NCBI GenBank assembly: GCA_040398845.1
Contig: JBBATH010000004.1
Coordinates: forward strand, 146,981-210,980
Reading direction: 5' to 3'
Length of the DNA: 64,000 nt
Source: Candidatus Nanopelagicales bacterium
GTDB lineage: Bacteria > Actinomycetota > Actinomycetes > S36-B12
In this document: positions 24,158 to 41,909 of the stretch, in pieces
Position numbering within the stretch: position 1 is the stretch's first letter
Layout of the letters: each line of letters starts with the position of its first letter
The notes under the pieces: model-generated
Database searches by the model: none
What the model was told of the DNA's origin: nothing
What the model saw: the letters and a program-made list of their open reading frames with translations, nothing else
Made by a program: the position numbers and the translations under genes

Positions 24158-24948
24158 GGCCGCACGAATCCGTAGGCGCGCAGGATGCCCTGCGCGGAGG
24201 TTGTGAATCGGACGTAGGTGACGAAGGCCCGAGCTGCTGCGGCATTGGGGGCGCCGATGACGGTGGCGATCGGGTAGGTCGTGGTGACGTTGCTCGCTGG
24301 CGGGATGGCCACAGACGTGACCTTGCTTGCAGCGGCCTTTACGTCGGATGTGTAGACGATGCCCGCATCGACCTCGTCCGCCATCACCTTGCCCAGAACT
24401 GCGCGAACGTCAAGCTCCAAGGTGACGGGCTTGACGACAACGGAGTTCAGCTTCAAGACATCACGGGTGGCCGCGCCGCACGGCACCGCCACGGCACATA
24501 CCGCGACCAGCACGCCCGGCCTCGCGAGGTCAGATAGCCGTTTGATTCCAGCGGGATTGTCCGGCGGCATCGCGATAGCCATGCTGTTCTTGGCGAAGAG
24601 GAATGGTGCGTTGACTCGTCCCGCATTGACCGCCTTCCACATGGTCGGCTCCGAGGCGGTCGCGAGCACATCGACGGGTGCGCCTGCGTTAATCTGCTCG
24701 ACGAGCGCGGGGCTGCCGCCGAAGTTGAACTTCACGTTCGTGCCCGGGTACTTCTTCATGAAAGCGGCGGCGATCACCGGAAACACGTCGGTGAGGGACG
24801 CCGCTGCCGACACCGTGACCGTGCCGGTCACCCGCTGCGGAGCAACCGGGCGGCCGGGCGACGCACCTGCCGCCCCCGCTCCAACCAACGAGGTCACCGT
24901 GATTGCAGTTGCCGCCGACCATGCCAACAGATGTCTGCTGATGCTCAC
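24151..24948 (-). CDS. modA: molybdate ABC transporter substrate-binding protein
   Basis: Signal peptide followed by TVSAAASLTDVF...FGGSPALVEQI..GAPVDVLATAS, typical of ModA. Confidence 0.85.
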   Translation of the reverse strand: MSISRHLLAWSAATAITVTSLVGAGAAGASPGRPVAPQRVTGTVTVSAAASLTDVFPVIAAAFMKKYPGTNVKFNFGGSPALVEQINAGAPVDVLATASEPTMWKAVNAGRVNAPFLFAKNSMAIAMPPDNPAGIKRLSDLARPGVLVAVCAVAVPCGAATRDVLKLNSVVVKPVTLELDVRAVLGKVMADEVDAGIVYTSDVKAAASKVTSVAIPPASNVTTTYPIATVIGAPNAAAARAFVTYVRFTTSAQGILRAYGFVRPW

Positions 24949-25346
24949 GTTGCTGCCTCGAGTTCGACGATGACGTTCGTCGACTTGATGACCGCAGCAA
25001 CGAGCGAGCCCGGGGCAAGGCCGAGCTCATCTGCCGACTCCCGACTCATGAGCGAGGTGACTCGGTGCGGGCCGGCCTGGATCTCGACGAGTGCCATCAC
25101 GCCGTCCTTCTCGACCCGAGTGACGATGCCGGGAAACCGGTTGCGCGCCGATTGCTGGACTGCCCGCGCCTCAAGGTGCGACTGCTCGGACATGAGGACC
25201 GCGACGCTGCCGGCATCGACAGTCCTCGGCCCGCCGGCATCCGTGCCGGCGGTCAGGCGGCCTGCGTCAAGCCAGCGGCGCACTGTGTCGTCGCTGACGC
25301 CGAGCAGGTTGGCCGCCTCCGAAACCCGCAGATTCGCCATAATCAA
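24945..25346 (-). CDS. MerR/excisionase-type HTH fused to a molybdate-binding Mop/TOBE domain (likely mod regulator)
   Basis: LRVSEAANLLGVSDDTVRRWLDAGRL (HTH), then SARNRFPGIVTRVEKDGVMALVEIQAGPHRVTSLMSRESADELGL.PGS.VAAVIKSTNV (Mop). Lies directly upstream of modA with a 4-nt overlap. Confidence 0.8.
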   Translation of the reverse strand: MIMANLRVSEAANLLGVSDDTVRRWLDAGRLTAGTDAGGPRTVDAGSVAVLMSEQSHLEARAVQQSARNRFPGIVTRVEKDGVMALVEIQAGPHRVTSLMSRESADELGLAPGSLVAAVIKSTNVIVELEAAT

Positions 25347-25394
25347 TCAATTTAGCCCGCACCTGCGGATATGGCAAGCATGAGCGCTCGTGTG

Positions 25395-25796
25395 TCAGGG
25401 GACCGTGGCCGGTGCCACGACTGGCATCCCGTTCATCGCGGCGGCGTCAGCGAGCCTGCGGTCGTAGGTCACAACGGCGACGAGATCGTCGCCAAGCGCG
25501 AGCGCCGATGCCACGTGGAGTGCGTCAAGCGTTCGTAGGTCCGAAGGTCCGAGTCGTCCGGCCGCTTCGAACAGCGCGGTGGTGATCGCGAGGAGGGTGA
25601 TCGAGTCGAGCACGACCCGAGCCCGCAGAACCCGGTCGGGGGCGGCCCGCCGAACCGCGCGGAGCAACTCAGTTCGGGCCAGATCACCAGCAACCAGCAC
25701 GGGTTGCGTTTCAGCTATCCAGGCAAGGAGTTCCTCGGTTTCGGCCTCAGCGACGACGAGTTTCACGAGCGCCGACGTGTCGATGTAGTGGGCCAC
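25395..25796 (-). CDS. vapC: PIN-domain toxin VapC (copy 1)
   Basis: MAHYIDTSALVKLVVAE...LRTLDALHVASALALGDDLVAVVTYDRRLADAA. The acidic PIN residues are present. Confidence 0.88.
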   Translation of the reverse strand: MAHYIDTSALVKLVVAEAETEELLAWIAETQPVLVAGDLARTELLRAVRRAAPDRVLRARVVLDSITLLAITTALFEAAGRLGPSDLRTLDALHVASALALGDDLVAVVTYDRRLADAAAMNGMPVVAPATVP

Positions 25797-25798
25797 GG

Positions 25799-26062
25799 TC
25801 AGTAGCGCTCGGCATCCCTCATCAGGGCCAATTCCGCCGACAGGCTCGGGCCCGCTTCAGGCGCAGGGAGGTCGCCAATATCGCGGCTTGGTGGGCGCGC
25901 TCGGCCGGAGTCGATCATCAATTGAAGGTTCGAGTTCAGGATTGGAATCATTTGCGCGACAGGACGGCCTCGATCCGTGATCGTCACGATCTCGCCGCCC
26001 GCCACACCCGCGACCACTGCCGACGCGTTTTGCTTCAGTGCTCGGATACCGACCTCGGCCAT
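25799..26062 (-). CDS. vapB: Phd/YefM-type antitoxin paired with VapC (copy 1)
   Basis: MAEVGIRALKQNASAVVAGVAGGEIVTITDRGRPVAQMIP.. . It ends 3 nt upstream of vapC. ORF 25799..26071 was trimmed to ATG 26062. Confidence 0.85.
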   Translation of the reverse strand: MAEVGIRALKQNASAVVAGVAGGEIVTITDRGRPVAQMIPILNSNLQLMIDSGRARPPSRDIGDLPAPEAGPSLSAELALMRDAERY

Positions 26063-26246
26063 GTTCTTCAAGGTAGCACAATGACTGGTTGGGAGCGACT
26101 CGTCCCTGGAGCCGGGTCGTACGCACCATCACCCCGAACCCACGTACCCCGAGCACATCACCGTCAGTCCTGCGTAGGTATCGAGCACCCGTTATGCATG
26201 CCCGGATGCAACCCTCACGGCAAACAGCCTGACGATCAGCGCTTCC

Positions 26247-26400
26247 TTAGGCCGGGGCGATGACCGGCGTCCCGTTCATCGCGGCGTCTTCAGCGAACCT
26301 GCGGTCGTACGTCACAACGGCGACGAGGTCGTCGCCAATCGCGACGCTGCAGGCATTGACCGTCTTCGGGCCGCTGGCAACCGTTACGGCGATTAGCTCG
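26247..26400 (-). pseudogene. 3'-terminal remnant of a second vapC (copy 2)
   Basis: Own minus-strand translation gives ..ASGPKTVNACSVAIGDDLVAVVTYDRRFAEDAAMNGTPVIAPA*. This aligns with the C-terminus of VapC copy 1 (..ASALALGDDLVAVVTYDRRLADAAAMNGMPVVAPATVP*). The DNA is visibly homologous to 25395-25500. Homology stops where the AT-rich segment begins, at about 26400. Confidence 0.75.
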
Positions 26401-26601
26401 CCGCATATTCGTCATATTCTGACGGCATAGACCGCACTTCCCGATTCTTTATGGATTCTCGCAACCCATCTGAGAGGTTTCCAAGAGGACACTCGTTGAG
26501 GTCATTTCAGCTCCTAGAATCGAGTTGTGCAGTGACTTTATGAAAAATCCCATCAGTTCCGCACCTTCACCTACCCCAACCACCTAGACCGGCAATGGCG
26601 A

Positions 26602-27717
26602 TTGTGGCGGGCCTTGGGCGAGGCGCAGAGCAAGTGCGAGCACGTGGCAGGAGCGCCGCTCCCCCCACACCTCGCGGAGGAACTCAGCGCCATCTACATG
26701 GCCAAGGGGGTCCACGCCACCACCGCAATCGAGGGCAACACGCTTTCCGAACAAGAGGTGGCCGACATCCTCGCCGGGACAGCCGACCTGCCACCCTCCC
26801 GCGAATACCAGAAAGTCGAGATCAAGAATGTTGCTGCCACCCTGGTCAGCATCGACGAGGCCATTAAGAACGGACAAGCACTTCACCTGACGGTCGAGTC
26901 AGTGACGGCACTCAACCTGCAGATCCTCCAGGGCACCGAACATGAGCCCAACGCGAAACCAGGCCGGTTTCGGCTCCATCAGGTGGTCATCGGACGCTAC
27001 CGGGCCGCGCCGTCCGAGGACGTCGAATACCTGCTGGACCGTCTACTTACGTGGATCAACCGCGAGACCCTTGAGAATTCCGATACGGATACGCAGTTCG
27101 CAAACGCCGTCATCGGAGCCGTCACGGCCCACGTCTACTTTGCCTGGATCCACCCCTTCGGGGACGGAAACGGACGCACTGCCCGCCTCATCGAAGCCCT
27201 CATCCTGGCGCGTTCTGGTCTGGTACCACTTCCGGCAATCAACCTCCTGAGCGATCACTACAACAAGACCCGGGACCGATACCGGCGAATGTTTGATGAA
27301 GCACGGGCGGCCAACGACATCACCTCCTTCATCCTCTACGCGGTCGAAGGCTACTTGGACGGTCTCCGGGGACAGGTGGAACAAATCCGACACGTCACGC
27401 TGCGAACATCGTGGGTGAACTATGTCCATGAACGGATGTCCGAGGAGCCCGAGGGCGCGACCCGGCGCCGGCGACGGGACCTCGTATTGGCCCTATCGTG
27501 CACGGGAATCGTGAAGCGCGCTGCCATCAGTCAACTCAACGCCCCGCTTGCAGCCGCCTACGCCGTCAAGGGCGAGAAGACCATATCCCGAGACCTCAAC
27601 CGGCTCGTCAGTCTCGGACTCGTCGTGCGCGTGGGACGTCATCACGTTCGGGCCAACAGCCAAGTTATGGAGGCCTTCCTGCCTCGCAAGGCAGACCCGC
27701 CGGAGCTCGCGGACTGA
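26602..27717 (+). CDS. Fic/DOC family protein (class II type with N-terminal inhibitory motif) plus C-terminal winged-helix domain
   Basis: Fic active-site motif HPFGDGNGRTARL. N-terminal TTAIEG matches the [S/T]xxxE[G/N] inhibitory helix. TTG start. Preceded by a 200-bp AT-rich segment. Confidence 0.88.
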   Translation: MWRALGEAQSKCEHVAGAPLPPHLAEELSAIYMAKGVHATTAIEGNTLSEQEVADILAGTADLPPSREYQKVEIKNVAATLVSIDEAIKNGQALHLTVESVTALNLQILQGTEHEPNAKPGRFRLHQVVIGRYRAAPSEDVEYLLDRLLTWINRETLENSDTDTQFANAVIGAVTAHVYFAWIHPFGDGNGRTARLIEALILARSGLVPLPAINLLSDHYNKTRDRYRRMFDEARAANDITSFILYAVEGYLDGLRGQVEQIRHVTLRTSWVNYVHERMSEEPEGATRRRRRDLVLALSCTGIVKRAAISQLNAPLAAAYAVKGEKTISRDLNRLVSLGLVVRVGRHHVRANSQVMEAFLPRKADPPELAD

Positions 27718-27814
27718 CACCCTCCTTCGAAGATGCACTTGCCTTTTGCAGTGACACTTGTCGCCGCGCACGCCTGCGTCATTCCGGGCGACCCTCGCGC
27801 AAGGAGTGCCTCGG

Positions 27815-28087
27815 TCAGGAGCGCTGGGAATCCCTCATCACGGCCAATTCCGCCGACAGGCTCGGCCCGGCTTCAGGCGCAGGGAGGTCTCGAATGTCGC
27901 GACTGGGTGGACGTGCTCGGCCGGATTCGATCATCAATTGGAGGCTCGAGGTCAGGATCGGGATCAGCTGCGTAACAGGACGGCCTCGATCCGTAATCGA
28001 CACGATCTCGCCGCCGGCCACATCTGCGACCACCGCGGGGGCGTTCTGCTTCAGTGCCCATGGGACGGCGGCGATTCGGCCGATCAA
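27815..28087 (-). CDS. Phd/YefM-type antitoxin, copy 2 (orphan; its vapC partner is deleted)
   Basis: ..ALKQNAPAVVADVAGGEIVSITDRGRPVTQLIPILTSSLQLMIESGRARPPSRDIRDLPAPEAGPSLSAELAVMRDSQRS, with about 67 of 80 positions identical to copy 1 by eye. The ATG of copy 1 is ATC here. The proposed start TTG 28087 overlaps the upstream gene's stop (TTGA). Confidence 0.65.
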   Translation of the reverse strand: MIGRIAAVPWALKQNAPAVVADVAGGEIVSITDRGRPVTQLIPILTSSLQLMIESGRARPPSRDIRDLPAPEAGPSLSAELAVMRDSQRS

Positions 28088-28719
28088 CCTATGTTCTGCG
28101 GGTTCTCCCTGACGCGAGCGTCGATGAGCACGTTGTGGCCGGCGAAGAACTGGTAACAGAACCAGACCGCCAACGGGATTCCGAGGATCAGGCCGCACAC
28201 GGAGAGGCTCACGACGTTTGACAGGACGAGGAGGGTCACAAGAAGACCGGCCGAACGGAGCATCGCCCTAGCTGCCACGGGGGCCGCGGCATCGCGGTCC
28301 TTGATGACCTCGTTGATGATCAGCGCCTCGATCACGATCGCCGCGATGACCGCAAGCAAGCCCAGGACCCCGGTGAGCAGGGACAGCACGATGGCAGCAC
28401 CAACGGCGATCACCGTTCCCCAGAAGTACTGCTCTAGGTTGGCACCCGCTCGCCCGGACAGGGTCCGATACATCCGCATCGCCTTTTAGAGCCACACCAT
28501 AAAGTAGATGCCGAACGTAATGGTGCTGAGGAACGTCATCATGCCGACGTCGACTCGACCCAGCTCAAGGAAAGCACCCCTCGGCGAGTCGGCCCGGACC
28601 GGACCGGACCGAACCGGCAGATTATCCGGAGGACCAGGAACCAGCGTGGGCGCCCCGCAGGCCATGTAGACTTGCAAGGATTGATGCTGAACCTCCGAGC
28701 CACACTTCGGACAAAACAC
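28084..28719 (-). pseudogene. zinc-ribbon + DUF4234-like membrane protein interrupted by an in-frame TAA
   Basis: ORF 28486..28719 (MFCPKCGSEV..C zinc ribbon ... TFGIYFMVWL) and ORF 28084..28479 (three hydrophobic helices) are in the same frame, separated by TAA at 28486-28488. The GIYxxxW motif is split from its expected continuation. Confidence 0.6.
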
Positions 28720-28925
28720 GATGGCCCCCTCAAGAGCTGCCGCACCCTACGACAACGAAGGCTGCTGGAGCAAGACGGGCTAGGTCAGGCGGGCGCCTCC
28801 GACGGCACCGGTCGTCGCTCAGGTGCGCGGTGATGAGTGGCACGCTCGGCGGATGCGCCCCGCGAAGGTTGGAGCCATTGCCTGGGAGCGAGTTCCGACG
28901 CGGGTCAGGTCCATGCTCAGTTCTG

Positions 28926-29876
28926 CTAGGTCGTGCGTCGCCGCCTGCCGTAGGCCTCGATGCCGAGTGCAAAGAGGATCACCAAGCCCTGAACGATCCG
29001 CTGCACCACCGGGTCGATGCCGTTGAGATTGAACCCATTGCCGAGGAAGGCGATGAAGAAGACACCGACAACCGTTCGCCATATCGCACCGTAGCCACCG
29101 GCGATCGATGTTCCGCCGACCACGATCGCCGCGATCACGGTGAAGACCAGACTGAAGTCGTCGCTCGCCTGAGCGGTGAGGGTTCGGATGGCGTTCAGCG
29201 AGCCAGCAAGTCCCGCGGCCATGCCGCCGAGGATGAACGCCAGCGCGATGACACGGTCGACCGGCACGCCCGCCAGGCGGGCAGCCTCCTGATTGCCGCC
29301 CACAGCGAATACATACCGGCCGAAGCGGGTCCGGTGAAGGAGTACCCCGGCGATGCCGATACATACGATGGCGATCCAGGTTGATGACGTGATGCCGAGA
29401 ACCTTGGTCGTGGCAAGGGCACGCATGGTCGAGTCGGGCAGTCGGAGGATGGATCCGTCCGAGACGAGATACGCGATGCCGAAGATCACCAAGGACGTCG
29501 CAAGCGTCACAATGAATGAGTTGATCTGGGCTTTCGAAACGATCAGGCCATTGATCAGACCGATGATGCACCCGACAACGGCCCCGACCAACAGCATGAG
29601 CAGCCCGGATTGAACATGCTCCGCAACGCGAATGGCCACGAGCGGGGCAAGGATGAAGGTTGCCGAAAGGGATATGTCAAAGCCACCGGCGATCAGGGTG
29701 ATGGTGGCGAAGACCGCGACGATGAGCACGATCGCGTTCTGGTCAAGGACATTCGACAGATTGGTGCCGCTGCGGAACGCCGGCGTGGTCACGGCAAGCA
29801 GCAGGAACAGGATGACAGTCGCCCACACGATCCCGTACTCGCCGAGGACATTAACGATACGTCGACTCGGATTCAC
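28926..29876 (-). CDS. ABC transporter permease, CUT2 (RbsC/AraH-like) family
   Basis: 316-aa polytopic protein with the typical ..GGFDLSxxxxxxL.. architecture (IAGGFDISLSATFIL). Has a 4-nt overlap with the ATPase gene. Confidence 0.85.
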   Translation of the reverse strand: MNPSRRIVNVLGEYGIVWATVILFLLLAVTTPAFRSGTNLSNVLDQNAIVLIVAVFATITLIAGGFDISLSATFILAPLVAIRVAEHVQSGLLMLLVGAVVGCIIGLINGLIVSKAQINSFIVTLATSLVIFGIAYLVSDGSILRLPDSTMRALATTKVLGITSSTWIAIVCIGIAGVLLHRTRFGRYVFAVGGNQEAARLAGVPVDRVIALAFILGGMAAGLAGSLNAIRTLTAQASDDFSLVFTVIAAIVVGGTSIAGGYGAIWRTVVGVFFIAFLGNGFNLNGIDPVVQRIVQGLVILFALGIEAYGRRRRTT

Positions 29877-31375
29877 GTGTCTCTCCCTGCAATGGTGAAC
29901 GCGGCGTTCATGATCTGCTCCTCAGTGGCGGTGCTGCCGTCGAATTCCGCGACGACCCTTCCCTCGTGCATAACAATCACGCGATGCGCCAAGCCGAGCA
30001 CCTCCTCGGTCTCCGACGAGACCATGAGGATCCCCATCCCTCGCTCGGCGAGCGAGACGAGGAGGTCGTAGATGGCGCGCTTTGCTGCGACGTCAACGCC
30101 GCGCGTTGGCTCGTCGGCGAGGAGGAGGACCGGATCCTCGACGAGGGCCCGGGCGAAGAGCACCTTCTGCTGGTTTCCGCCGGACAACGACGTGACCGGC
30201 GTTGTGACCTTTTCCGTTCGCACACCAACTGCCTCGACCGAAGTCTCGGCTTGCTCCAGCGCGGCACTCGGCGAGACGAGTCCAAAGGACCCCAAGTTTC
30301 GAAGGTGCGGCATCGTGATGTTCCACTCCACCGACATGTTGAGGAACAGACCCTGCTCCTTGCGTGACTCCGGTATGAGCGCGAGGCCGCTTCGCAGGGC
30401 CTCCGCCGGGTTGCGAGGCGCGAAGGCATTGCCCACCAATGTCATTGACCCGGAGTCTGCCGGCACATCGCCGAACACCGTGTGAAGGACCTCACTGCGG
30501 CCGGAGCCCACCAGCCCGGTGATCACGACGATTTCACCCTCGCAAACAACGAGGTCGACACCCGCGAACGCCGATCCCCTCGTCAGGCCCTGTACTGAGA
30601 GGAGTTCCTTCGCACCTGCGCCGGGAATCCTTCGAGGCGGGAAGTTCGCACTGAACGAACGCCCGGTCATGCCCTCGATGAGCGATTCCTCGGTCTCATC
30701 AGCCACTCGCGAGGTTCGAATGATCTCGCCATCGCGCATCACCGTCACGACGTCGGCGATGTCAAGTACTTCAGTGAGGAAGTGCGACACGAAAATCACG
30801 GTGCGTCCAGCATCGGCAAGCCGGCGAGTGAGCGACTTGAGCGCGGCCGTCTCAACACCAGTGAGTCGTGCGGTCGGTTCATCCATAACGATCACGCCGG
30901 CATCACGCGCCACAGCGCGAAGGATCTCTACTTTCTGGCGATCGCTAATCGGAAGGCCTCCGACGGCCACATCCGCGGGGACGCTGATCCCGGTGTCAGC
31001 GACGAGTGCGGCGAAGCGTCGATCGAGTGCCTTCTTTCGCACGAATGGACCCGAGTGGTCCTCAATGCCGAGGTAGACATTCTCGACAACAGATCGCGCC
31101 GGCACCAAGGAGAGTTCCTGCGCCATCATCGTGACGCCCACCTCGAGCGCCTGGCGGGGCGAGTTGAGTGACACAGCTCGCCCCGCTAGGATGTAATCAC
31201 CGCTGTCGGGCTGGATGACGCCCGCAATGACCTTGCCGAGTGTCGACTTTCCCGCACCGTTTTCTCCCACGAGGGCGTGAACGGTACCGCGCTCGATGGT
31301 CAGGTCCACAGCAAGGAGGGCCTGCGTTCCACCGAAACGCTTGGAGATGCCTGTCAACTCGACAACAGCGGCCAT
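29873..31375 (-). CDS. ABC transporter ATP-binding protein with duplicated ABC domains (CUT2/RbsA-like)
   Basis: Two Walker A / signature sets (GENGAGKSTLGK, ISDRQKVEILRA; LSGGNQQKVLFAR). Start set at ATG 31375 (MAAVVELTGISKRFGG) within ORF 29873..31468. Confidence 0.88.
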   Translation of the reverse strand: MAAVVELTGISKRFGGTQALLAVDLTIERGTVHALVGENGAGKSTLGKVIAGVIQPDSGDYILAGRAVSLNSPRQALEVGVTMMAQELSLVPARSVVENVYLGIEDHSGPFVRKKALDRRFAALVADTGISVPADVAVGGLPISDRQKVEILRAVARDAGVIVMDEPTARLTGVETAALKSLTRRLADAGRTVIFVSHFLTEVLDIADVVTVMRDGEIIRTSRVADETEESLIEGMTGRSFSANFPPRRIPGAGAKELLSVQGLTRGSAFAGVDLVVCEGEIVVITGLVGSGRSEVLHTVFGDVPADSGSMTLVGNAFAPRNPAEALRSGLALIPESRKEQGLFLNMSVEWNITMPHLRNLGSFGLVSPSAALEQAETSVEAVGVRTEKVTTPVTSLSGGNQQKVLFARALVEDPVLLLADEPTRGVDVAAKRAIYDLLVSLAERGMGILMVSSETEEVLGLAHRVIVMHEGRVVAEFDGSTATEEQIMNAAFTIAGRDT

Positions 31376-31382
31376 GCCTTGC

Positions 31383-32459
31383 CTAGCCCGCCCACTGGGC
31401 GGTGTAATCGCCCACGTTTGCGGAGGTGATCTTGCCGCCGTTCGGGAAATCGAGCAGCGGATTGACACCGCCAGTGATGGTTCCGTCGCGCAATGCGGCG
31501 ATCATCGCAAGGATGGCCTTCTCACCCTCGGTGCCCGGTGCGCCGAAGACGTCACCGAACCACGTTCCGCCGGCAACAGCATCAAGTGCTGCCTGCGAGC
31601 CGCCGAACCCGATGAGCTTGATCTTGGAGATCAGCCCGGCGTCCTCCACTGCGAGCTGGGCACCTTGAATCGCCTGATCGGGACCGGTGATGACGTTGAT
31701 CTCCGGGTTCTTCTGCAGCATGTCCTGAGTGCCCTTCATGGCGACATCAGGTCCGAGGTACTGGCTCTCGCCCTCCGCGACAACCTTGATGTTCGGGCTG
31801 CCCTTTGTTGCCTCATCGAAGCCCAGCCGAACAGCGGTGTCGAGGGGGGTTCCCTTGATGCCGAAGAAGTACCCGACATTGCACGGATCGAGATCCGCGC
31901 ACGCCTCGACCGCGAGCTCGCCGAGCAATGTGCCACTCGCCTTCGGGGGAACGAGCACCGAGGCCGACGGCCCGTCGAACTGCGGGTCGGAGGTGTCGAG
32001 CTGGTCACCGATGATCTGGTTGAGGATGACCACCTTGAGGCCGGCGTCGATCGCCTGCTGCAGGTCGGGGATCAATGCGGCCCCGTCGAGGCCGGCGATG
32101 ATGATGCCCTTGTAGTCGCCGGCGGCGATGACGTCTTGAATCTGCTTTGCGGCCTCGCCGGGCTTGAACTGGGCATCGAACTCAGTGATCTCGATCCCCT
32201 CGGGGGCCGCGATCGCCTGCATCGACTTGAGCGACGACTGCAGCCAGGTGTTTGCGGAACTTGCACTGAGGTAGGCCACCTTGCCGCCGATAGCAGCGGG
32301 CGCTGATTCAGCTGGGGCCGAGCTTGCCGCGGGGGCGGCGCTTGCAGGTTGAGCGGAGGACTCGCTGCTGCTGGAAGAACCGCCGCAAGCAGTGAGGAGC
32401 AGTGCAGCTGCCCCCACCGTTGCGATGAGCACAGCGGGCGTCGTCTTGAGTCGTGCCAT
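31383..32459 (-). CDS. ABC transporter substrate-binding lipoprotein, periplasmic-binding-protein type 1 (sugar-binding-like)
   Basis: Lipobox LLLTACGG, a Ser/Ala-rich linker and a PBP1-like body. It is the first gene of the transporter triplet. Confidence 0.8.
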   Translation of the reverse strand: MARLKTTPAVLIATVGAAALLLTACGGSSSSSESSAQPASAAPAASSAPAESAPAAIGGKVAYLSASSANTWLQSSLKSMQAIAAPEGIEITEFDAQFKPGEAAKQIQDVIAAGDYKGIIIAGLDGAALIPDLQQAIDAGLKVVILNQIIGDQLDTSDPQFDGPSASVLVPPKASGTLLGELAVEACADLDPCNVGYFFGIKGTPLDTAVRLGFDEATKGSPNIKVVAEGESQYLGPDVAMKGTQDMLQKNPEINVITGPDQAIQGAQLAVEDAGLISKIKLIGFGGSQAALDAVAGGTWFGDVFGAPGTEGEKAILAMIAALRDGTITGGVNPLLDFPNGGKITSANVGDYTAQWAG

Positions 32460-32541
32460 GGGTATTCCTTCCTGTTGGGCTGCAGAACCAGCCTGTTTCC
32501 ATGCAACGCTAGGTCCGTGACAATCATCTAGGAATGGACTT

Positions 32542-32573
32542 TTTGCCTACTTAGATAGCTATACATAGGCAAA
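32542..32573. promoter_or_regulatory. nested inverted repeat TTTGCCTA-N16-TAGGCAAA (centre ATAGCTAT) between the pucR-like stop and the SBP gene
   Basis: Perfect 8-bp arms at 32542-32549 and 32566-32573 in a locally AT-rich stretch. No U-tract follows on the transcribed (minus) strand, so an operator is favoured over a terminator. Confidence 0.35.
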
Positions 32574-32576
32574 CTG

Positions 32577-34238
32577 CTACCCACTCCTGCTAGCGGTGCG
32601 CCCGGGAGCATCACCGGCCTTGAGTTTCGCCACCCGGCACGCCAACTGAACGGCCAATCGCTCCTCCGGCTCCTCGAGATTCACCGTCAGTAGCGTTCGC
32701 AACCGCTCAACGCGGTTAATGACCGTATTGCGGTGGACGCCGAGCACGGCAGCCGTGAGGGTCGCGGACGACTCGGAATCGAGGTACGTCTCCAATGTCG
32801 CGAGCAACTGGCCGTCGGCATCGTTGTCTGTGACCGGCGCCAGCAGCGACGTGGCGAAGGCCGCGAACGACTCCGATGCATACCAGCCCAAGAGGATGCG
32901 ACGTACGCCAAGGGCATCGATGTGCTGGACCCCCGATCGCCCGCCTGCAGCCTGCGCGACAACGGATGCCTCCTTCGCCTCGCTCAGGCTCGCCTGCAAG
33001 CCGTTGAGACCCTGATAGGACCGCCCGAGTCCGCCATGCAGGTGCAGCCTGGGTGCACGGTCCACCACGAGTTCAACGGCGCGCCCAAGGTTCTCGGTCA
33101 ACAAGGCCAGTTGCTCCGGTGTTGGTTCCTTCAGATGCGACACCCATAGCGTCCATCCGTCAGGTCGCTCAATGAGCGGTCCGCGGAGTTCAGCCTCGAC
33201 GAGTTGCCGGTTGAGATCCTCGGTGAGCACGAGGACGCGCAGCGGGTCGGCCTCGCCGGAGGCTTGGAGGATGATCCCGGTGCACCAGCCGTCGACGTGC
33301 CAGCCGAGGGTGGCGAGTTGGCGCCTGAGAGGTCCCTCCGCCCTCTCGGACGAGTCGAGAATCAAACTCAGGATCCCCAGCCGAAATCGTGCGTCACGCT
33401 CACGCTGGAGCCGGTCTTGGACCATGCGCGAGGACACATACCAACCGGACATGAGCAGAAGATCCGAAACTAGAGATGTCTCAGCAGCCGTCGGCGTGCG
33501 GAGGCGCGCCGTCAGCCAGAAGGAGGCTTGCTCATTCGGGGCCAGGGTCAGGGGCCGAGTCACTATAGTGTCGTCACCCTCAAACACCTCAATGGGGACC
33601 TGGAGCACCTCCCCCCAGTCACTCGGCACCGCAGCGGGGTCTCCGAGGATGACGCTCCCCTCCGGCCCGGTCAGGGCGAGCGGTCCCGGGAAGGAGGTCG
33701 CGATCGACTCGAAGGCCCGGTCGAGGGTCGTTCTGGTGCCGGCCGCATCGAGGTGCTCGAGGAGGGTGAGCAGCAGGTCGCTGCGCGCAACATTGGGTTG
33801 CTTGACGACGCCTCGCAGTCCTTCGGCCAGTCGCAGGACCTCGGCCTCAGGCTCGAGGATCAATGGGAGCCGGAGCTTGTCCGCCAGTTTCAATGCCGAC
33901 ACCGGCACGATCATCCGCTGCGCACACAGGACAACGGCACTGGCGCCGCTCTCGCTCGCGACCCGGATCGCGACGTCAACCTGGTAGTTGTCCGAGACGA
34001 GCGTTCGGCCATCGAAGACAACGAGCGCGCCGGCCGCGATTCGGTCCCCCTTGACACGCGATTCGAGGCCGAGTGCGGTGACGTCAACGACGTGCCCGTC
34101 GAGTCCGGAGTCGCCGGCGAGCAGAACAACAGACTTGCTCCAAGGCGCCGCGCCGAGAAGCTGCCGCACAGTGACGGCCGCAAGATCTGCGTTCCTGCGC
34201 GATGAACTGAGCCTGGAATCCCCAGCTCTCATGCTCAT
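32577..34238 (-). CDS. PucR/CdaR family transcriptional regulator
   Basis: C-terminal PucR-type HTH LETYLDSESSATLTAAVLGVHRNTVINRVERLRTLL and a long N-terminal sensory region. Confidence 0.85.
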   Translation of the reverse strand: MSMRAGDSRLSSSRRNADLAAVTVRQLLGAAPWSKSVVLLAGDSGLDGHVVDVTALGLESRVKGDRIAAGALVVFDGRTLVSDNYQVDVAIRVASESGASAVVLCAQRMIVPVSALKLADKLRLPLILEPEAEVLRLAEGLRGVVKQPNVARSDLLLTLLEHLDAAGTRTTLDRAFESIATSFPGPLALTGPEGSVILGDPAAVPSDWGEVLQVPIEVFEGDDTIVTRPLTLAPNEQASFWLTARLRTPTAAETSLVSDLLLMSGWYVSSRMVQDRLQRERDARFRLGILSLILDSSERAEGPLRRQLATLGWHVDGWCTGIILQASGEADPLRVLVLTEDLNRQLVEAELRGPLIERPDGWTLWVSHLKEPTPEQLALLTENLGRAVELVVDRAPRLHLHGGLGRSYQGLNGLQASLSEAKEASVVAQAAGGRSGVQHIDALGVRRILLGWYASESFAAFATSLLAPVTDNDADGQLLATLETYLDSESSATLTAAVLGVHRNTVINRVERLRTLLTVNLEEPEERLAVQLACRVAKLKAGDAPGRTASRSG

Positions 34239-34242
34239 TCCA

Positions 34243-35253
34243 TCATGATGTCACTGCCGGAAGTAGTTCTGCGAGGCGCCGCCTGAGGGTGCCCGAGTTC
34301 ACCCACGCAGCGTCCTCCTCACCGAGTGCATCGACGAGCATGGCGCCTAGCCCGGCGAGATCACCGGGTCGCTGGACATCGTCGAGCATCGGGATAGCCG
34401 TGAGGTCGATGAGCGCACCACCGAGGATCGGATCGACGATCGGCATGAGGTCGGCCATGAAGTCCGGCCCGAGCCCGACCCGATCGGCGCCAAGGATTCT
34501 CATCGCATGCTGCACGTGTGCGATGAGATCAGCAGATGTCGCCGAATCCGCAAGGAACGGGGCGAAGGCATTGATTGCAACGAAACCGCCATGCTCGCCA
34601 ATCGCGCGGATCTGGCGATCCGTGAGGTTGCGGGGGTGATCCTGAAGAGCCCGGCAGGAGGAATGGCTGGCGATGAGCGGCGCCGTGGTGATCGAGTCCA
34701 CGTGCCAGAACCCGTTCTCTGAGAGGTGACTGACATCCAGAATGATGCCAAGGCGAGACATTTCCTGGACAGCGTCGATGCCCAGACCCGTCAGCCGGCC
34801 TCCCGTATCGCGCTCCCCGACGCCATCGGCCAGCATTGTCCGGCGATTCCAGGTGAGGGACACCATACGTACGCCCGCCTGAAACATCGTCCGAACGAGG
34901 GCAATATTGCTCCCAAACGACTCGCCGCCCTCAAGGGCGAGGACGAGCGCGATGCGCCCGCAGTCGATGGCTCGTTCGATGTCAGCACCCGTCAGGCAAA
35001 TGGCGACGTCGTCAGGGTGTTGCCTGGCGATCTGCCATGCCTCGTCAAGGAGGAGGAGGGTCCGGCGGAGTGCGCCTTCACCGACGTACTGCTCCTCAAC
35101 GAAAACCGGAAGAACCTGAAGAACGACACCACCGTCGCGTAGTTGCGGAAGCCAGAAATCCCCGAAGGGGTCCGATTGTCCCCTCTCGCGCCGGTGCAGG
35201 CACGGGATGAGGAGGTCGTTATGGCAGTCCGCCATCGCCAGTTGTCCGCTCAT
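34243..35253 (-). CDS. membrane (renal-type) dipeptidase, peptidase family M19
   Basis: DCHNDLL start motif, ..VSLTWNRRT.., ..LDVSHLSE.. and ..ASHSSCRAL.. are characteristic M19 metal-ligand contexts. Confidence 0.85.
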   Translation of the reverse strand: MSGQLAMADCHNDLLIPCLHRRERGQSDPFGDFWLPQLRDGGVVLQVLPVFVEEQYVGEGALRRTLLLLDEAWQIARQHPDDVAICLTGADIERAIDCGRIALVLALEGGESFGSNIALVRTMFQAGVRMVSLTWNRRTMLADGVGERDTGGRLTGLGIDAVQEMSRLGIILDVSHLSENGFWHVDSITTAPLIASHSSCRALQDHPRNLTDRQIRAIGEHGGFVAINAFAPFLADSATSADLIAHVQHAMRILGADRVGLGPDFMADLMPIVDPILGGALIDLTAIPMLDDVQRPGDLAGLGAMLVDALGEEDAAWVNSGTLRRRLAELLPAVTS

Positions 35254-35651
35254 GTCAACTCCTCTTCAGCGCGTGCCAATTGCAGCGCCCGGGTCAGTTC
35301 ATCACTCGGGGCAACGAGACGAGCCTCGCAAATCTGGCCCGCAGCAACCGTGATGAAGGACGCGCCCTCCACGTCGAGCACGACCGGTGGCTGCTCCGCC
35401 GACACTGCACTCATCCGCCAGCGAATGGCAGCCTGATTACCATCGGCCACGACCTGCAGCACGTCACGTCGATAGTTGGGGAAGAGCGCCACCAATTGAG
35501 CCATGGCGCGGCGATCATCCTCCGCGCTCGAGACTTCGCACACCCCGTTGACCGTGACGTGGATGTCCGGCGCGAGCAACGCCGTCGTGGCATCCCAGTC
35601 ATGTGAGTTCTCCGCGCGGTTGTATGCGAGGTACGCCTCGGCGGCATTCAT
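35250..35651 (-). CDS. SnoaL-like / NTF2 family protein
   Basis: MNAAEAYLAYNRAENSHDWDATTALLAPDIHVTVNG... is typical of the SnoaL-like fold. Start set at ATG 35651, 2 nt after the upstream gene's stop. The 3' end overlaps the dipeptidase start. Confidence 0.65.
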   Translation of the reverse strand: MNAAEAYLAYNRAENSHDWDATTALLAPDIHVTVNGVCEVSSAEDDRRAMAQLVALFPNYRRDVLQVVADGNQAAIRWRMSAVSAEQPPVVLDVEGASFITVAAGQICEARLVAPSDELTRALQLARAEEELT

Positions 35652-35653
35652 CA

Positions 35654-37210
35654 CTACCCCTTCAGCGGCCCGGCCGCCTTGACCTGCACTCGGCATCCTT
35701 GCCCCGGAAGATAGGACATCGGTACCTCCGCAACCGACGTGATGCGCACCCCGTTCGGATCGGCACCGGCACGCACTGCCGCATCGACCGCCAGTTGCTT
35801 TGCCTCGTCGAGGCAGGCATCGCGCCCCAATGCTTCATACCGATACACGCGATCGACGGCGCCGGACGCCTCTGCGATTGCCGCCCCGAAGGCGTTAGCA
35901 ACCGCGTAGTGTGCGGGGCGGATGACCTCGGCGACCCCGTTCACCCGATCTGGGACCAGGTGCGAGCCTCCTCCAACGGCGATGAGCGGCATCGACGCGC
36001 GACTTGCCTTCATTCGATCGCACAGCACCGTGATCTGCTCATCGACCCAGGCCAGAGCGCCGGAGACCGTGGCGTCGCTGATACCGCCAGCCAAGGACGC
36101 ATCCCCGAATCCGGTGAGCCGGCCGGAGCGCACGGCGATGTCGGACAGCGTGAGCGTGCGTCCACCGCTCACGAGTGCCTCCGTCACTACCAGATAGCCG
36201 ACCGAGTCGGGCCCTACGAGCACGGACGATCCGGATTCGGTGACGAGCGTGCCCCCACCGAGTCCGATTGAGATGAGATCGGGCATCCGGAAATTCGTAC
36301 GTACTCCCCCGACCTCGACCGCGGCCGCTGACTCACGTGGGAACCCGTCGACAAGGATTCCAACATCCGCAGACGTGCCGCCAATGTCGATGACGAGTGC
36401 GTTCGAAAGCCCTGCGAGTGCACAGGCCCCACGCATGGAGTTCGTCGGTCCGGAGCCAACAGTGAGGATCGGCAGCCTGACAGCCTCTTCGGCTGTCATG
36501 AGCGTCCCGTCGTTCTGGGTGAGGTAGGACTCGACGTCCAGTCCATGTCTGGTGAGCGCAGTCTGGAGGCCATCGACCACCCGGCGCGCGACGCCGAATA
36601 ACGCAGCGTTGAGAATCGTTGCGTTCTCCCGCTCAAGCAGCCCGAGTGAGCCGACCTGATGGGACATCGAGACGGCAACCTGCCCACCGGTCACCTCGTC
36701 GATGATCGCGGCGGCCCGGATCTCGTGGTCTGTGGTGGCCGGGGCGAACGCCGATGAAACGGCGATCGCACGGACGACACCTATGCAGTCGCGAGCGAAC
36801 GCGCGGACACCGTCTTCATCGAGGGGACTGATCTCCTCCCCGTCGTATTCGAAGCCGCCACGAAGGATGGCGGCCCTGCCGATGACCGTGTCGTGGAGGT
36901 CTGCCGGCCAAGCCATACCGGGACGAATCGCGAGGGACGCCGGCGCCGCAAGGCGCAGGATGCCGATCGGGTCGAGATCTCGGCGCCGAATGATGGCGTT
37001 TGCGGGATGGGTCGTGCCGAGCATCGCCTGCGTGATGTGGGCGCGATCGACGTCAGCGATGACCTGATCGAGGGCGATGCGAATGCCGTCGCTCGGATCT
37101 GGCGTTGTCGCGGTCTTGGTGCTCGACAGGACGTTGCCGTCATCATCGACGACCACCGCGTCGGTATTCGTTCCCCCAACGTCGATGCCGATCCGAAGTC
37201 GCGTGCTCAT
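35654..37210 (-). CDS. hydantoinase/oxoprolinase family protein (HyuA-like, ASKHA fold)
   Basis: RIGIDVGGTNTDAVVVDDDGNVL.., DIGGTSADVG and VGGGS motifs. No HyuB-type partner lies nearby. Confidence 0.85.
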   Translation of the reverse strand: MSTRLRIGIDVGGTNTDAVVVDDDGNVLSSTKTATTPDPSDGIRIALDQVIADVDRAHITQAMLGTTHPANAIIRRRDLDPIGILRLAAPASLAIRPGMAWPADLHDTVIGRAAILRGGFEYDGEEISPLDEDGVRAFARDCIGVVRAIAVSSAFAPATTDHEIRAAAIIDEVTGGQVAVSMSHQVGSLGLLERENATILNAALFGVARRVVDGLQTALTRHGLDVESYLTQNDGTLMTAEEAVRLPILTVGSGPTNSMRGACALAGLSNALVIDIGGTSADVGILVDGFPRESAAAVEVGGVRTNFRMPDLISIGLGGGTLVTESGSSVLVGPDSVGYLVVTEALVSGGRTLTLSDIAVRSGRLTGFGDASLAGGISDATVSGALAWVDEQITVLCDRMKASRASMPLIAVGGGSHLVPDRVNGVAEVIRPAHYAVANAFGAAIAEASGAVDRVYRYEALGRDACLDEAKQLAVDAAVRAGADPNGVRITSVAEVPMSYLPGQGCRVQVKAAGPLKG

Positions 37211-38292
37211 GCCGTCGCTCCTTCCATGGACACGAAGTCCACGTCATAGCCGAATGCCTTCGGTCCGACAAGCTCCAACATGCCCGGCTGATGCCACTCA
37301 GGTGCGCACGGCAGGCCGATGACATTGATGCGCTGGCCGTACGCGAGGGTCTCGGTCGTGATCGGATCAGAGGTCTCATAGTCGAGGAAGCAGATGAGAT
37401 CGGGGGTCGTGATGACCGGCTTGCCGTCCTCGAAGGCGATGAGGAACTCGTTTTGGATCTCCACGCGCATGATCCGCTCCGAATCAGAGAGGTCCTCCAG
37501 CACGACCGTTCCGCGAGCGAAACCGGCTGTTGTGCGACGGTCGACGTCGATGATCTTTCCTGAGAAGTACTTGCGGCCACCGGAGAAGCGCAGGAACTCA
37601 TCGAATGCGCCCTCCTCACCCCGCTTGACGGCATTGAGTCGCTTGCCCAACTCGACGCAGTAGCTCATCGAGCCTTGGATCCCGTGTTCGGCGACCTGTC
37701 TGACCGTCATCGGATAGCAGGAGATCCCATTGGCCATGCCCAATTGCATGACCGACGCACGGGCCAGTTTCTCGGCCACCTGATTGCTGATGGTCTGAAG
37801 TACCACCACATTGCCCTTTTCATCCGCCACGCTCATCGGAGCGGCAGGAATCCCTGCGAGGGTGAAGACAGTCATCTCGATCTGCGGGAACGCCCGGCGC
37901 ATCGAATCGGCATCAATGACCGGCAGGCCCATCTCGACAGCGGTTGCGAGCGGTATAAGGGTGTTCATGCCACCGACCTCGATCGGCATGATCGCAACCG
38001 GCTCCTTGCCCAAGTGAGCGGCAAGCGCCTTCACACAGGCAACGAACTCGGTGCCGGCCGGGGGCTTCTCGATGATCACGGTGGGCGCTCCGATGACCGC
38101 GGTCGTGAGCACGAGGCCATCGGGATCAAGTTCGCTCGGATCAACGATCTTCACTGCCCCGAAGCGCCCCATCGCCTGCCTGACCATAAGTCGGGCGATA
38201 TACGGATCCCCGCCGCCGCCAGTCCCGAGGAGGGTCGCCCCGATGACCATGTCATCAAGGTCGTCCAACGTGAGTTCGCGCATAGTTTCCAC
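37207..38292 (-). CDS. DUF917 domain-containing protein
   Basis: LTLDDLDDMVIGATLLGTGGGGDPY.. N-terminal signature of DUF917. Has a 4-nt overlap with the hydantoinase-like gene. Confidence 0.8.
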   Translation of the reverse strand: METMRELTLDDLDDMVIGATLLGTGGGGDPYIARLMVRQAMGRFGAVKIVDPSELDPDGLVLTTAVIGAPTVIIEKPPAGTEFVACVKALAAHLGKEPVAIMPIEVGGMNTLIPLATAVEMGLPVIDADSMRRAFPQIEMTVFTLAGIPAAPMSVADEKGNVVVLQTISNQVAEKLARASVMQLGMANGISCYPMTVRQVAEHGIQGSMSYCVELGKRLNAVKRGEEGAFDEFLRFSGGRKYFSGKIIDVDRRTTAGFARGTVVLEDLSDSERIMRVEIQNEFLIAFEDGKPVITTPDLICFLDYETSDPITTETLAYGQRINVIGLPCAPEWHQPGMLELVGPKAFGYDVDFVSMEGATA

Positions 38293-38388
38293 CTGTGTCA
38301 GTTCGAGGGACGTGCTGAGTACGAAGTAGTTGAACTGTAGAAGAGATTGCCCCCGGTAACCCTGTGCAGTTCGCTCACTGGTGATAAA

Positions 38389-39684
38389 TCACGTGGGCAG
38401 ATTGCCCCGTGCATGAGTCGGAGTTCGTAGCCCTTTGCCCCACTGGAATCGCTCGATGGAGAAGGGCGCAAGTTCTGGGGGCTGCGACTTCCCCTCGACC
38501 AGGTCAGCGACGAGTTGACCGGTACGAGGTGCCAGCGTTACGCCGAGCATGGCGTGGCCGGTAGCGAGGATGACCCCCGGTGCTTGCCGCAGCCGGCCGA
38601 TGACCGGCAGGCCGTCGGGGGTCATCGGTCGCAGCCCGGCCCACGGCTCGCGGGCGCCGTCGATGCCCGCAGCGAAGTACGGCCGGGAGGAGGTGATGAT
38701 GCCGGCTGCGCGCCGGAGATCCACCCGATCCGGATCGCCACCGAACTCCATCGTCCCCGCCAGTCGCATGCCCTCGTTCAACGGCGTGACCGCCACCTTT
38801 GCCTCCGTCAGGTAGACGGCTCGACGCGGCGGCACGGGCGGGGCCGCGAGGTCGTACCCGTATCCCTTGCCGAACCTCAGCGGTAGGCGCTGCCCGAGGG
38901 ACGCCACGATTCTCGAGGTACCGACGCCGGCGGCAACGACAACCTGTCGCGCCGACATGGACCCATGGCCCCACGACAGGGCGATCCGGTCCTTCGCGAT
39001 GGCCAGGCCCCGGACCGACTGCCCCTCGAGCACCGGCACGCCCATAGCGCCGATCGCGCTCCGCAGCCCATCTACGTAGCTGCCTGGATTGAGGTGCATC
39101 TGGTCCGGGCAGAGGATTCCGGCGACCACGGTTTCAGCAAGACCGGGCTCCACATCGCGGACCCCGGTCGCATCGAGGAGCTCCGGGGTTGATAGCCCCG
39201 CAGCCGAGGCTGCGTCCTGGTATTCCTTGACGTGGGCCTCGAACTCACCAAGCGACGTGAATGCGAGGAGGACGCCGTCCCGGTGCAACTCGAAGTGGAC
39301 TCCCCGCCCGGCGTAGGCATCGAACAGGTCCAGCGTGCCCTCCGCCAACGCGCCGACGGCAGCGTGCCCCTGCTGAAATCGCCGTGGCGTCGACGCCCGC
39401 AGCATGCCGATCATGAAGGCGATGTGCCCGGGGTCGAGGTCAGGCGCAACGCGAAGTGGCGACGTCGGATCGAACATCCAACGGGCGGCCTTGCCTACGA
39501 CACCGGGGGCAGGAACCGGCGCGGCCATAATGGGCACGACCCATCCAGCGTTGCGGCGCGCGGCACCCGAACCGACGGTAAGGGCTTCAATGACTGCAAC
39601 GTCGATGCCGCGTGTCGCGAGCTCGAATGCGACGCTCAGCCCAACCGGCCCGGTGCCAATGACAACAACCTCGTGGTCAGCCAC
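38389..39684 (-). CDS. FAD-dependent oxidoreductase (DadA / glycine-D-amino-acid oxidase-like)
   Basis: HEVVVIGTGPVGLSVAFELATRGIDVAVIEA dinucleotide fold and a DAO-family body. The ORF extends to ATG 39735. GTG 39684 is preferred because it reduces the overlap with the upstream gene from 59 to 8 nt. Confidence 0.8.
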   Translation of the reverse strand: MADHEVVVIGTGPVGLSVAFELATRGIDVAVIEALTVGSGAARRNAGWVVPIMAAPVPAPGVVGKAARWMFDPTSPLRVAPDLDPGHIAFMIGMLRASTPRRFQQGHAAVGALAEGTLDLFDAYAGRGVHFELHRDGVLLAFTSLGEFEAHVKEYQDAASAAGLSTPELLDATGVRDVEPGLAETVVAGILCPDQMHLNPGSYVDGLRSAIGAMGVPVLEGQSVRGLAIAKDRIALSWGHGSMSARQVVVAAGVGTSRIVASLGQRLPLRFGKGYGYDLAAPPVPPRRAVYLTEAKVAVTPLNEGMRLAGTMEFGGDPDRVDLRRAAGIITSSRPYFAAGIDGAREPWAGLRPMTPDGLPVIGRLRQAPGVILATGHAMLGVTLAPRTGQLVADLVEGKSQPPELAPFSIERFQWGKGLRTPTHARGNLPT

Positions 39685-40657: not shown

Positions 40658-40728
40658 GTCCGCCTCCCTCTTGAAATCCCACTCGACTAGCCGACACCAC
40701 GGTCTCCGCTGGTGTCCGTCGGACCACA

Positions 40729-40781
40729 CGATAGTCGCGGCCTTTCACCCCACTCCTGTGACATACCCACAGCGATAGTCG
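40729..40781. promoter_or_regulatory. direct repeat of CGATAGTCG (x2) in the divergent promoter region of the catabolic cluster
   Basis: CGATAGTCG occurs at 40729-40737 and 40773-40781. A related inverted copy CGACTAG lies at 40684-40690. All three sit between the OCD-family start (40657) and the racemase start (40876). Confidence 0.3.
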
Positions 40782-40875
40782 AATCGGTGTGCACGTTGCC
40801 ACTCTTGACGATCGGCCATGCGTGCGATCCTCAGTCTGCCATCTCGAGACCGTCGACCTTGAAAGGAGCCCGATC

Positions 40876-41661: not shown

Positions 41662-41861
41662 GGTCAGGCGACGATCCACGGCGTGTGTGCGCCCATTGAG
41701 CATCCTTGAAGTGGGTGTCTCGCGGCCTCCAACACCAACTCAGTCTTGCCGCCTGATGAATTCCTCGTAAGGGTTCTCCGGCCCCATCGACCAAGCCGTG
41801 AGGGGATCGGGCCGGTCCCGCCCACCACTGGTATCGCGCGGGCTGCACTGCCCCAGCAACC

Positions 41862-41889
41862 GGGTTACGGTGATGTGCATTTTCCAACC
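41862..41889 (+). promoter_or_regulatory. promoter-like motif GGGTTAC-N16-CAACC upstream of fasciclin gene 1
   Basis: The same two blocks with identical spacing (23 nt start-to-start) recur upstream of fasciclin gene 2 at 48796-48823. The motif lies 21 nt before GTG 41910. Confidence 0.4.
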
Positions 41890-41909
41890 AATGAACAAGG
41901 AGTTCACCC

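Follow-up and report, generated by a model that had tools for sequence, protein, structure and literature searches.

A probable recombination scar with degraded vapBC and Fic genes in the variable modE-fasciclin interval of a Candidatus Nanopelagicales bacterium

A Fic-bearing block inside a second vapBC copy

We analysed a toxin-antitoxin (TA) locus in a stretch of 64,000 nucleotides (nt) from a Candidatus Nanopelagicales bacterium (assembly GCA_040398845.1, contig JBBATH010000004.1, positions 146,981 to 210,980), hereafter the window, in whose numbering all coordinates are given unless another contig is named. At this locus, a vapBC module with its toxin and antitoxin genes shares the interval between the regulator gene modE and a fasciclin gene with an orphan antitoxin open reading frame (ORF), a toxin remnant, and a gene for a Fic protein. 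A preliminary description had read the arrangement as a tandem vapBC duplication in which one toxin family was swapped for another. The structure is real, and the most fitting label for it is that of a degraded TA/Fic recombination scar, an already known sort of thing, at a locus that varies among relatives. Our favoured explanation, to which we assign a probability of roughly 60%, is that the composite is a relic of microhomology-mediated recombination at the variable modE-fasciclin locus that then decayed in a lineage-specific manner, with no functional exchange of toxins.

Read along the minus strand, the locus contains vapB2, the start of vapC2, Fic in antisense, the Fic upstream region, a 5' fragment of modE with its own start codon (modE'), the last 33 codons of a vapC (vapC'), a spacer, vapB1, vapC1, and full-length modE. 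The vapB2 ORF (27815..28087, minus strand) is Phd/YefM-like and identified by homology to vapB1: positions 27808-28057 align with 25792-26041 over 250 nt without gaps at 86.4% identity (BLASTN, E=5e-77), and the two proteins are 84.8% identical across 79 amino acids (aa; residues 11-89), in agreement with the approximately 84% estimated earlier. Homology to copy 1 had been said to resume at the vapB2 stop codon; it does so and extends 7 nt past it, and these last 7 nt (27808..27814, minus strand), identified from BLASTN and relatives, mark the former vapC2 start site, where GTG is now GAG. To the left of Fic, vapC' (26247..26347, minus strand) is the 3' remnant of a second vapC, made up of some 33 codons and a terminal stop, with 88% identity to the 3' end of vapC1 (26250-26347 versus 25407-25505, one 1-nt gap, E=3e-29, BLASTN). 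The preliminary description had placed a remnant of approximately 50 codons at 26247-26400; a remnant homologous to the vapC1 3' end exists, but only about 33 codons belong to it, and the remainder is modE 5' sequence. With the vapB2 stop and the vapC start on the right-hand side of Fic, and a collinear vapC 3' end on its left, the Fic-bearing block sits inside a former second vapBC copy, which supports the topology proposed at the outset.

Repeat comparison and a shuffle test identified modE' (26340..26445, minus strand) as a piece from the 5' end of another modE copy. Its first part, 26340-26396, corresponds to modE codons ~32-49 and is 81-83% identical to modE at 25200-25256, while 26401-26445 aligns with the modE start codon (ATG at 26415) and approximately 30 nt upstream of it, with a score of 17 that was reached by 0 of 500 shuffles; a 62-nt internal deletion lies between the two pieces. 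The modE' reading frame continues into vapC' (...GPKTVNACSVA joined to IGDDLVAVVTYDRR...), with the fusion at a CGCGA(G)CGC microhomology, and the start side of the fragment runs contiguously into the Fic upstream region (26446..26526, plus strand), which is part of a low-GC stretch and is kept in two relatives, L006 and L030, from 26453 on. An AT-rich stretch between the two vapBC copies had been pointed out before, and GC content indeed dips to 49.5% at 26400-26599, compared to ~64% in the surroundings; the modE' alignment indicates that this stretch consists of the decayed modE 5' end and the Fic upstream region. Tandem duplication, with a 306-bp unit or a triple copy, was considered for the modE'/vapC' junction and rejected, as the predicted gene order was not observed and the spacer had no modE similarity. 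A search with the N-terminal 53 aa of modE, aimed at a 47-aa partial ORF on the contig of the Fic orthologue P0002, returned two irrelevant matches only.

The presence of a modE 5' end and its upstream region in the block points to recombination of two alternative occupants of the modE-fasciclin locus rather than to insertion of a Fic cassette. A swap of toxin families inside a TA locus was therefore not supported, considering that the block contains a modE 5' fragment, that Fic is interrupted by a stop codon, that L006 and L030 have Fic without vapB2, and that most relatives have one vapBC and no Fic. Across 24900-42200, we found no recombinase or transposase gene, terminal inverted repeats, target-site duplication, or flanking repeats, so that Fic did not qualify as a mobile element and the absence of such signatures noted earlier was confirmed.

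In the scenario that we favour, a block with Fic as divergent neighbour of modE would have been joined into the toxin gene of the second vapBC copy via microhomology-mediated recombination, illegitimate or homology-facilitated, with nothing site-specific involved. By an equivalent route, a modE-Fic pair could have been resident, with a tandem vapBC array inserted around it in two parts, which would yield the same product, such that the two routes are indistinguishable here. Later decay would have taken a different course in each lineage, through point mutations and through small deletions at microhomologies of 5-8 nt; all later deletions in the relatives indeed fall at short microhomologies. 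We infer this mechanism and the direction of events, and we observed the anatomy, haplotypes, stop codon, and selection estimates described below.

Homology-facilitated illegitimate recombination and microhomology-mediated end joining, by which foreign DNA is integrated in naturally transformable bacteria, were reportedly described by de Vries and Wackernagel in 2002. Our locus resembles such events in having junctions at 5-8 nt microhomologies, a modE fragment duplicated beside a homologous crossover, and no recombinase, inverted repeat, or target duplication; it differs in that the mechanism is deduced here from scars alone and in that the events predate ~10% nucleotide divergence. The locus also resembles orphan antitoxins and degraded TA loci, as it has an antitoxin ORF without cognate toxin plus toxin fragments, and lineage-specific loss, but the break in the toxin gene holds a toxin-like Fic gene and a fragment of a housekeeping regulator. 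It could thus serve as a worked example of chromosomal TA and Fic genes shuffled by recombination at the level of microhomology and eroded differently in sister lineages. It also calls for caution, because an orphan antitoxin beside a different toxin need not be a designed exchange: the apparent partner Fic is probably inactivated here and antitoxin-independent in relatives.

State of the antitoxin, toxin, and Fic genes

Copy 1 was intact, as described before, with PIN and Phd/YefM matches above curated Pfam cutoffs. vapC1 (25395..25796, minus strand) encodes a PIN toxin of 133 aa (Pfam PIN, E=8.3e-13; PF01850, 49.4 bits versus a cutoff of 23.6) with orthologues in more than 20 contigs, and the acidic residues D6, E43, D91, and D112 were recognized by eye. 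vapB1 (25799..26062, minus strand) encodes a Phd/YefM-type antitoxin of 87 aa that matched PF02604 (E=3.4e-7; 30.4 bits, cutoff 29.8) and TIGR01552 (24.5 bits, cutoff 20.8). The antitoxin gene comes first in the same operon, with a 2-nt gap from the vapB1 stop to the vapC1 start, and vapB1 had a ratio of nonsynonymous to synonymous substitution rates (dN/dS) of 0.15-0.18 versus orthologues. In gene order, the 2-nt gap, the four acidic PIN residues, and the Phd/YefM N-terminal domain, vapBC1 resembles known VapBC modules, and it looks like a functional, ordinary PIN/Phd-type TA module, the sole complete module of this locus. Copy 2 differs from such modules: its toxin is a 33-codon tail that keeps just the last PIN acidic residue (dN/dS 0.57), its antitoxin is devoid of its native start codon and promoter, and with an incomplete toxin ORF, and Fic and modE' between its remnants, it does not constitute a TA module.

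A scan of genome contigs with VapC1 retrieved four distant loci only, at 37-69% identity, none of them syntenic. In a Cellulomonas metagenome-assembled genome (MAG; L002, 5034-5358), a partial vapB C-terminus and a vapC middle fragment lie 5 kb from the intact vapBC homologue of that genome, which indicates that partial duplicates of this TA family recur in distant actinobacteria.

The vapB2 protein had a PF02604 score of 17.4 bits (E=0.0038), below the curated cutoff of 29.8, and its N-terminus differs from that of vapB1 and has no ATG. The sole candidate start is a TTG at 28087, without a good Shine-Dalgarno sequence, and this TTG overlaps the TGA of the upstream membrane-protein ORF (TTGA, 28084-28087). 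Both the loss of the ATG and the TTGA overlap had been noted previously and were seen again; as for the translational coupling proposed along with them, the overlap may be a mere accident of the junction with a 13.7-kb block, given that it sits at the edge of this block, which is present only in this genome. A gapped alignment of the vapB2 5' region beyond 28057 was suggestive of further homology and not significant.

Selection estimates for vapB2 were 0.19 (dN/dS) versus vapB1 and 0.20-0.34 versus orthologues, and its toxin-binding C-terminal half is nearly identical to that of vapB1. These two features suggest that vapB2 stayed functional over most of its past and that its product, if made, could still neutralise VapC1. 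The vapB2 ORF has survived, with purifying selection acting on it during most of its history, but its native start and promoter were lost to the lineage-specific 13.7-kb block; any present activity of vapB2, and likewise of Fic, would have to be extrapolated from such data. No vapB2-like sequence was found among database vapB relatives, which all resemble vapB1.

The Fic gene (26527..27717, plus strand, native start GTG at 26527) is convergent with the orphan antitoxin, on the opposite strand, as first described, and was delimited by alignment to a 396-aa orthologue. Its Fic domain scored well above the cutoff (PF02661, 56.1 bits versus 24; E=6.9e-15), the active-site loop HPFGDGNGRTAR, an instance of HxFx(D/E)GNGRxxR, is invariant in the homologue alignment, a C-terminal domain is also present, and the inhibitory TTAIEG lies at residues 40-45 of a 371-aa ORF, N-terminal to the Fic core, in a region that is spanned by the alignment to FICD and is invariant in homologues. 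The Pfam match, the loop, and the homologue alignment are thus in line with the earlier designation as a class-II-type Fic with an inhibitory motif. Among PDB sequences, the best matches were FICD (4e-18) and bacterial Fic proteins, and the window Fic resembles class II Fic AMP-transferases, which have an inhibitory helix at the N-terminus (FICD/HYPE, SoFic, and BtFic-like), in HPFGDGNGRTAR and in TTAIEG as an instance of (S/T)xxxE(G/N), with orthologues of ~390-400 aa. It differs in that the window copy has TGA at codon 3 and would be at best a protein without the first 25 conserved residues, and it is assigned to class II by sequence alone. Compared to SoFic itself, its score was far under the NCBIfam SoFic equivalog cutoff.

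The stop codon interrupts what would otherwise be a full-length translatable gene. Codon 3 is TGA (26533-26535), corresponding to CGA, encoding Arg, in the orthologue P0002; the window reads GTG CAG TGA CTT TAT GAA... where P0002 has V-Q-R-I-Y-E. The next start is a TTG at 26602, which opens the 371-aa ORF with the loss of 25 conserved residues, while close Fic homologues have 391-405 aa, and those that are 94% and 91% identical have 396 aa. Given that Fic had a dN/dS of 0.15 versus its intact orthologue in L030, the codon-3 TGA seems to be recent, and the gene here is probably dead or N-terminally truncated, a fresh pseudogene. Exact look-up of the 371-aa Fic ORF and of the 131-aa membrane ORF upstream of vapB2 found no record of either, because gene callers chose other start codons.

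More distant Fic homologues occurred in other settings. A homologue at 63% identity (L007-L009) has a type I restriction-modification operon directly on one side and a tyrosine recombinase on the other, the setting of a defence or mobile island, and one at 57% identity adjoins DUF554 and glycosidase genes in an unrelated context. These unrelated contexts suggest that Fic is accessory cargo. A scan of metagenome contigs with P0002 yielded just Fic relatives at ≤46% identity.

Haplotypes of relatives and competing explanations

Related arrangements were compared across about 20 contigs, gathered via the contexts of Fic and vapB homologues, whose flanking genes are 84-95% identical to those of the window. 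The commonest arrangement, type A (L013-L017, L031-L040), has a single vapBC between modE and fasciclin, without Fic or a second copy; the fasciclin upstream region (41727 onward) is followed by a conserved 36-nt filler and then by 26081 onward, with vapB, vapC, modE, and modABC. This junction (26081, 36-nt filler, 41727) is identical in two lineages ~10% apart. The filler was also considered as a scar of the vapC2 stop codon and rejected, as the resemblance (11 of 14 nt) was too weak. In type B (L010-L012), vapBC1 is intact and an ATCACC(C/T)CC microhomology marks the junction of 26135 with 27315; the Fic remnant comprises 27315-27559 and 27673-27721 and encodes an 81-aa tail (P0241). Approximately 60 nt after this tail, type B contigs have an exact 14-nt match, CTGACCGTGGCCCA, to the vapB-stop/vapC-start junction, followed by the fasciclin upstream region; its score was reached by 5 of 1000 shuffles.

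The remaining arrangement, found in L006 and L030, consists of modE, then vapC1 scars at 25385-25404 and 25788-25813, vapB1 as two short pieces (including ~25908-25926), and 26453-27721 with an intact 396-aa Fic that is joined directly to 41734 at an ACACC microhomology, with no vapB2; a further junction lies at a GTGGACC microhomology. An intact and constrained Fic in the absence of vapB2 argues that Fic and vapB2 are not functionally tied. Two stretches of the window composite, 26136-26452 and 28058-41716, were seen nowhere else. Three diverged lineages thus have Fic in the interval from vapB1 to the fasciclin gene, with different decay in each, which suggests that the event is old. The set of haplotypes (composite, Fic only, vapBC only, and vapBC with Fic tail) could be used as a small natural experiment to gauge the pace at which TA remnants decay and to see whether orphan antitoxins are retained.

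Sliding-window identities revealed that the region is a recombination mosaic. Type A1 (L013/L014) is matched at 96-99% by 24550-25210, 25900-26081, and 41700-41925, stretches that include modA and the modE 3' part, the vapB1 5' part, and the fasciclin upstream region, while 25225-25900, with the modE 5' part, vapC1, and the vapB1 3' part, is 93-99% like L010. The switch in modE from A1-like to L010-like ancestry falls at ~25208-25232, approximately 10-30 nt from 25200, the coordinate of the modE'/vapC' fusion; this may fit a homology-facilitated event, yet it could be coincidence.

Several observations weigh against our favoured explanation. Neither an uninterrupted vapBC2 nor a vapBC2-vapBC1 tandem was found among relatives or database vapB homologues, and intact modE directly beside Fic was not confirmed in any genome. 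The one candidate for such an adjacency, or for a longer vapC2 5' remnant, is the 2515-bp contig of GCA_041443045.1 that encodes P0002 and P0247; it has a minus-strand ORF 112 nt upstream of Fic, and 325 nt separate its Fic stop from an 87-aa ORF that did not turn up among the vapB clusters in cluster look-ups. From the Fic stop to where the vapB2 homology ends, a stretch of 90 nt (27718..27807) resembles neither vapC1 nor its L010 counterpart to a significant degree, and therefore the evidence for a vapC2 5' end consists of 7 nt in the window and 14 nt in L010; an early 17-nt match that had suggested a vapC2 5' remnant at 27722-27807 was not significant in a shuffle test and was rejected, with only the 7 nt beside the vapB2 stop retained. 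The mosaic structure weakens any tree-based ordering of events. Moreover, the single-vapBC arrangement is the commonest and occurs in diverged lineages, so it may be ancestral, in which case the composite may have been imported ready-made by homologous recombination.

This last possibility can be stated as a full alternative, in which single-vapBC was ancestral in this background and the composite 26082-41716 arrived by homologous recombination, anchored in modE/vapBC1 and in the fasciclin upstream region, so that no insertion into vapC2 took place in this lineage. The window flanks, 96-99% identical to Fic-less type A1 contigs, the L010-like vapC1 and modE 5' part, and the type A junction shared by two lineages that diverged by ~10% would be expected under such an import. 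We nevertheless find it decidedly doubtful, as it would merely shift the formative event to a donor lineage and leave the anatomy unexplained, and as both the 5' part of vapB1 and the initial 19 nt of the spacer resemble A1 and not the donor. Another possibility is that Fic and modE were resident and that a donor segment, composed of the vapC tail, spacer, vapB1, vapC1, and modE 5' part, integrated into the resident modE, with one homologous crossover inside modE and the other a microhomology joint at codon 49 that displaced the resident 5' end as modE'; vapB2 would then be debris of the separate 13.7-kb block, and vapC2 would never have been split. The start codon and upstream region retained in modE', contiguous with the Fic upstream region, are consistent with this course of events, as are the ancestry switch (25208-25232) close to 25200 and the position of vapB2 exactly at the edge of the window-only block. 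On the other hand, L010-L012 do not have the 13.7-kb block and still have the vapB-stop/vapC-start scar downstream of the Fic tail, the collinear and same-strand vapB2, vapC start, and vapC tail across Fic would have to be a coincidence, modE' is not consistently A1-like and has an L010-like start region, and a mosaic breakpoint that near would arise by chance roughly 1 time in 10. We therefore regard a donor segment integrated into resident modE as unlikely.

Doc is a Fic-fold toxin that is neutralised by the antitoxin Phd, and by analogy VapB2, a Phd-type protein, might partner or regulate Fic in a functional hybrid module, which would represent a true toxin exchange. Beyond the Phd-Doc precedent, the open vapB2 frame with a dN/dS of ~0.2-0.3 would suit such a module. 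However, vapB2 and Fic are convergent and form no operon, Fic has its own inhibitory TTAIEG in the class II arrangement, L006 and L030 have an intact and constrained Fic with neither vapB2 nor vapBC1, and in the window Fic has a stop at codon 3 and vapB2 has no native start codon; the pair differs from Phd-Doc both in orientation and in the lack of co-occurrence, and we deem a hybrid module very improbable. An assembly artefact, such as a chimeric or collapsed contig, might be suspected from the metagenome or MAG-like source and from split or stopped genes nearby (Fic at codon 3, and a TAA between the 77-aa and 131-aa ORFs upstream of vapB2). It is hardly credible, considering that an independent Logan assembly of the window genome (L001) was 100% identical across 20.4 kb, though possibly from the same reads, and that the composite has sub-structures found again in further samples and lineages (L006, L030, and L010-L012).

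In each of the four haplotypes seen, just one of Fic and vapBC1 is intact: Fic in L006/L030, and vapBC1 elsewhere, where Fic is absent, truncated, or stopped, with few independent lineages represented. This pattern may point to functional antagonism between the Fic AMPylase and the PIN toxin system. We consider it a long shot that Fic and VapBC1 are mutually incompatible here, or that VapB2 has been selectively kept as a trans-acting spare antitoxin for VapC1, translationally coupled to the membrane-protein gene.

Flanking genes and minor observations

The left flank of the variable interval is conserved and consists of the modE-like regulator gene (24945..25346, minus strand), the first gene of the mod operon, which encodes HTH and TOBE/Mop domains (Pfam TOBE, 2.7e-18, and HTH_17; NCBIfam Mop). 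The spacer upstream of vapB1 (26063..26249), delimited by comparison with relatives, is common to all relatives at 26063-26081, shared with L010-L012 at 26082-26135, and exclusive to the window at 26136-26249. The conserved right flank (41717..42518, plus strand), recognized by synteny in relatives, comprises the fasciclin gene (41910-42518) together with its upstream region, and in relatives it directly adjoins either vapB1 or the Fic 3' end.

Between the vapB2 5' edge and the fasciclin upstream region, the 13.7-kb block (28058..41716) is missing in all of the approximately 20 related contigs. It encodes the pair of 77-aa and 131-aa membrane ORFs, a sugar ABC transporter, a PucR regulator, an M19 peptidase (dipeptidase), SnoaL, hydantoinase-like proteins, DAO (FAD oxidase), OCD (ornithine cyclodeaminase), and an Asp/Glu racemase; neither a recombinase gene nor flanking repeats were found in or around it. 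The gene upstream of vapB2 had been labelled zinc-ribbon/DUF4234 in the preliminary description. Weak zinc-ribbon matches agree with the first part of this label, but DUF4234 had no Pfam support for these ORFs, the merged read-through protein included, and was discarded. The 77-aa zinc-ribbon-like and 131-aa membrane ORFs (28084-28719, minus strand) share a frame and are parted just by a TAA at 28486-28488 (...GIYFMVWL, stop, KAMRMYR...); they are probably a single gene with a nonsense mutation, or a read-through pair.

An Rfam scan of the window returned no matches. The synteny of the window with L010 and L031 stops at position 20440. An MFS_3 transporter at ~19212-20442 (L001, 15355-16585) is split by gene calling into two ORFs (250 and 175 aa) that overlap, and a frameshift may have hit this gene as well. 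Elsewhere in the window, a second fasciclin-like region, diverged in sequence, occurs at ~48841-49452 and is 74-77% identical to the fasciclin gene and upstream region of relatives.

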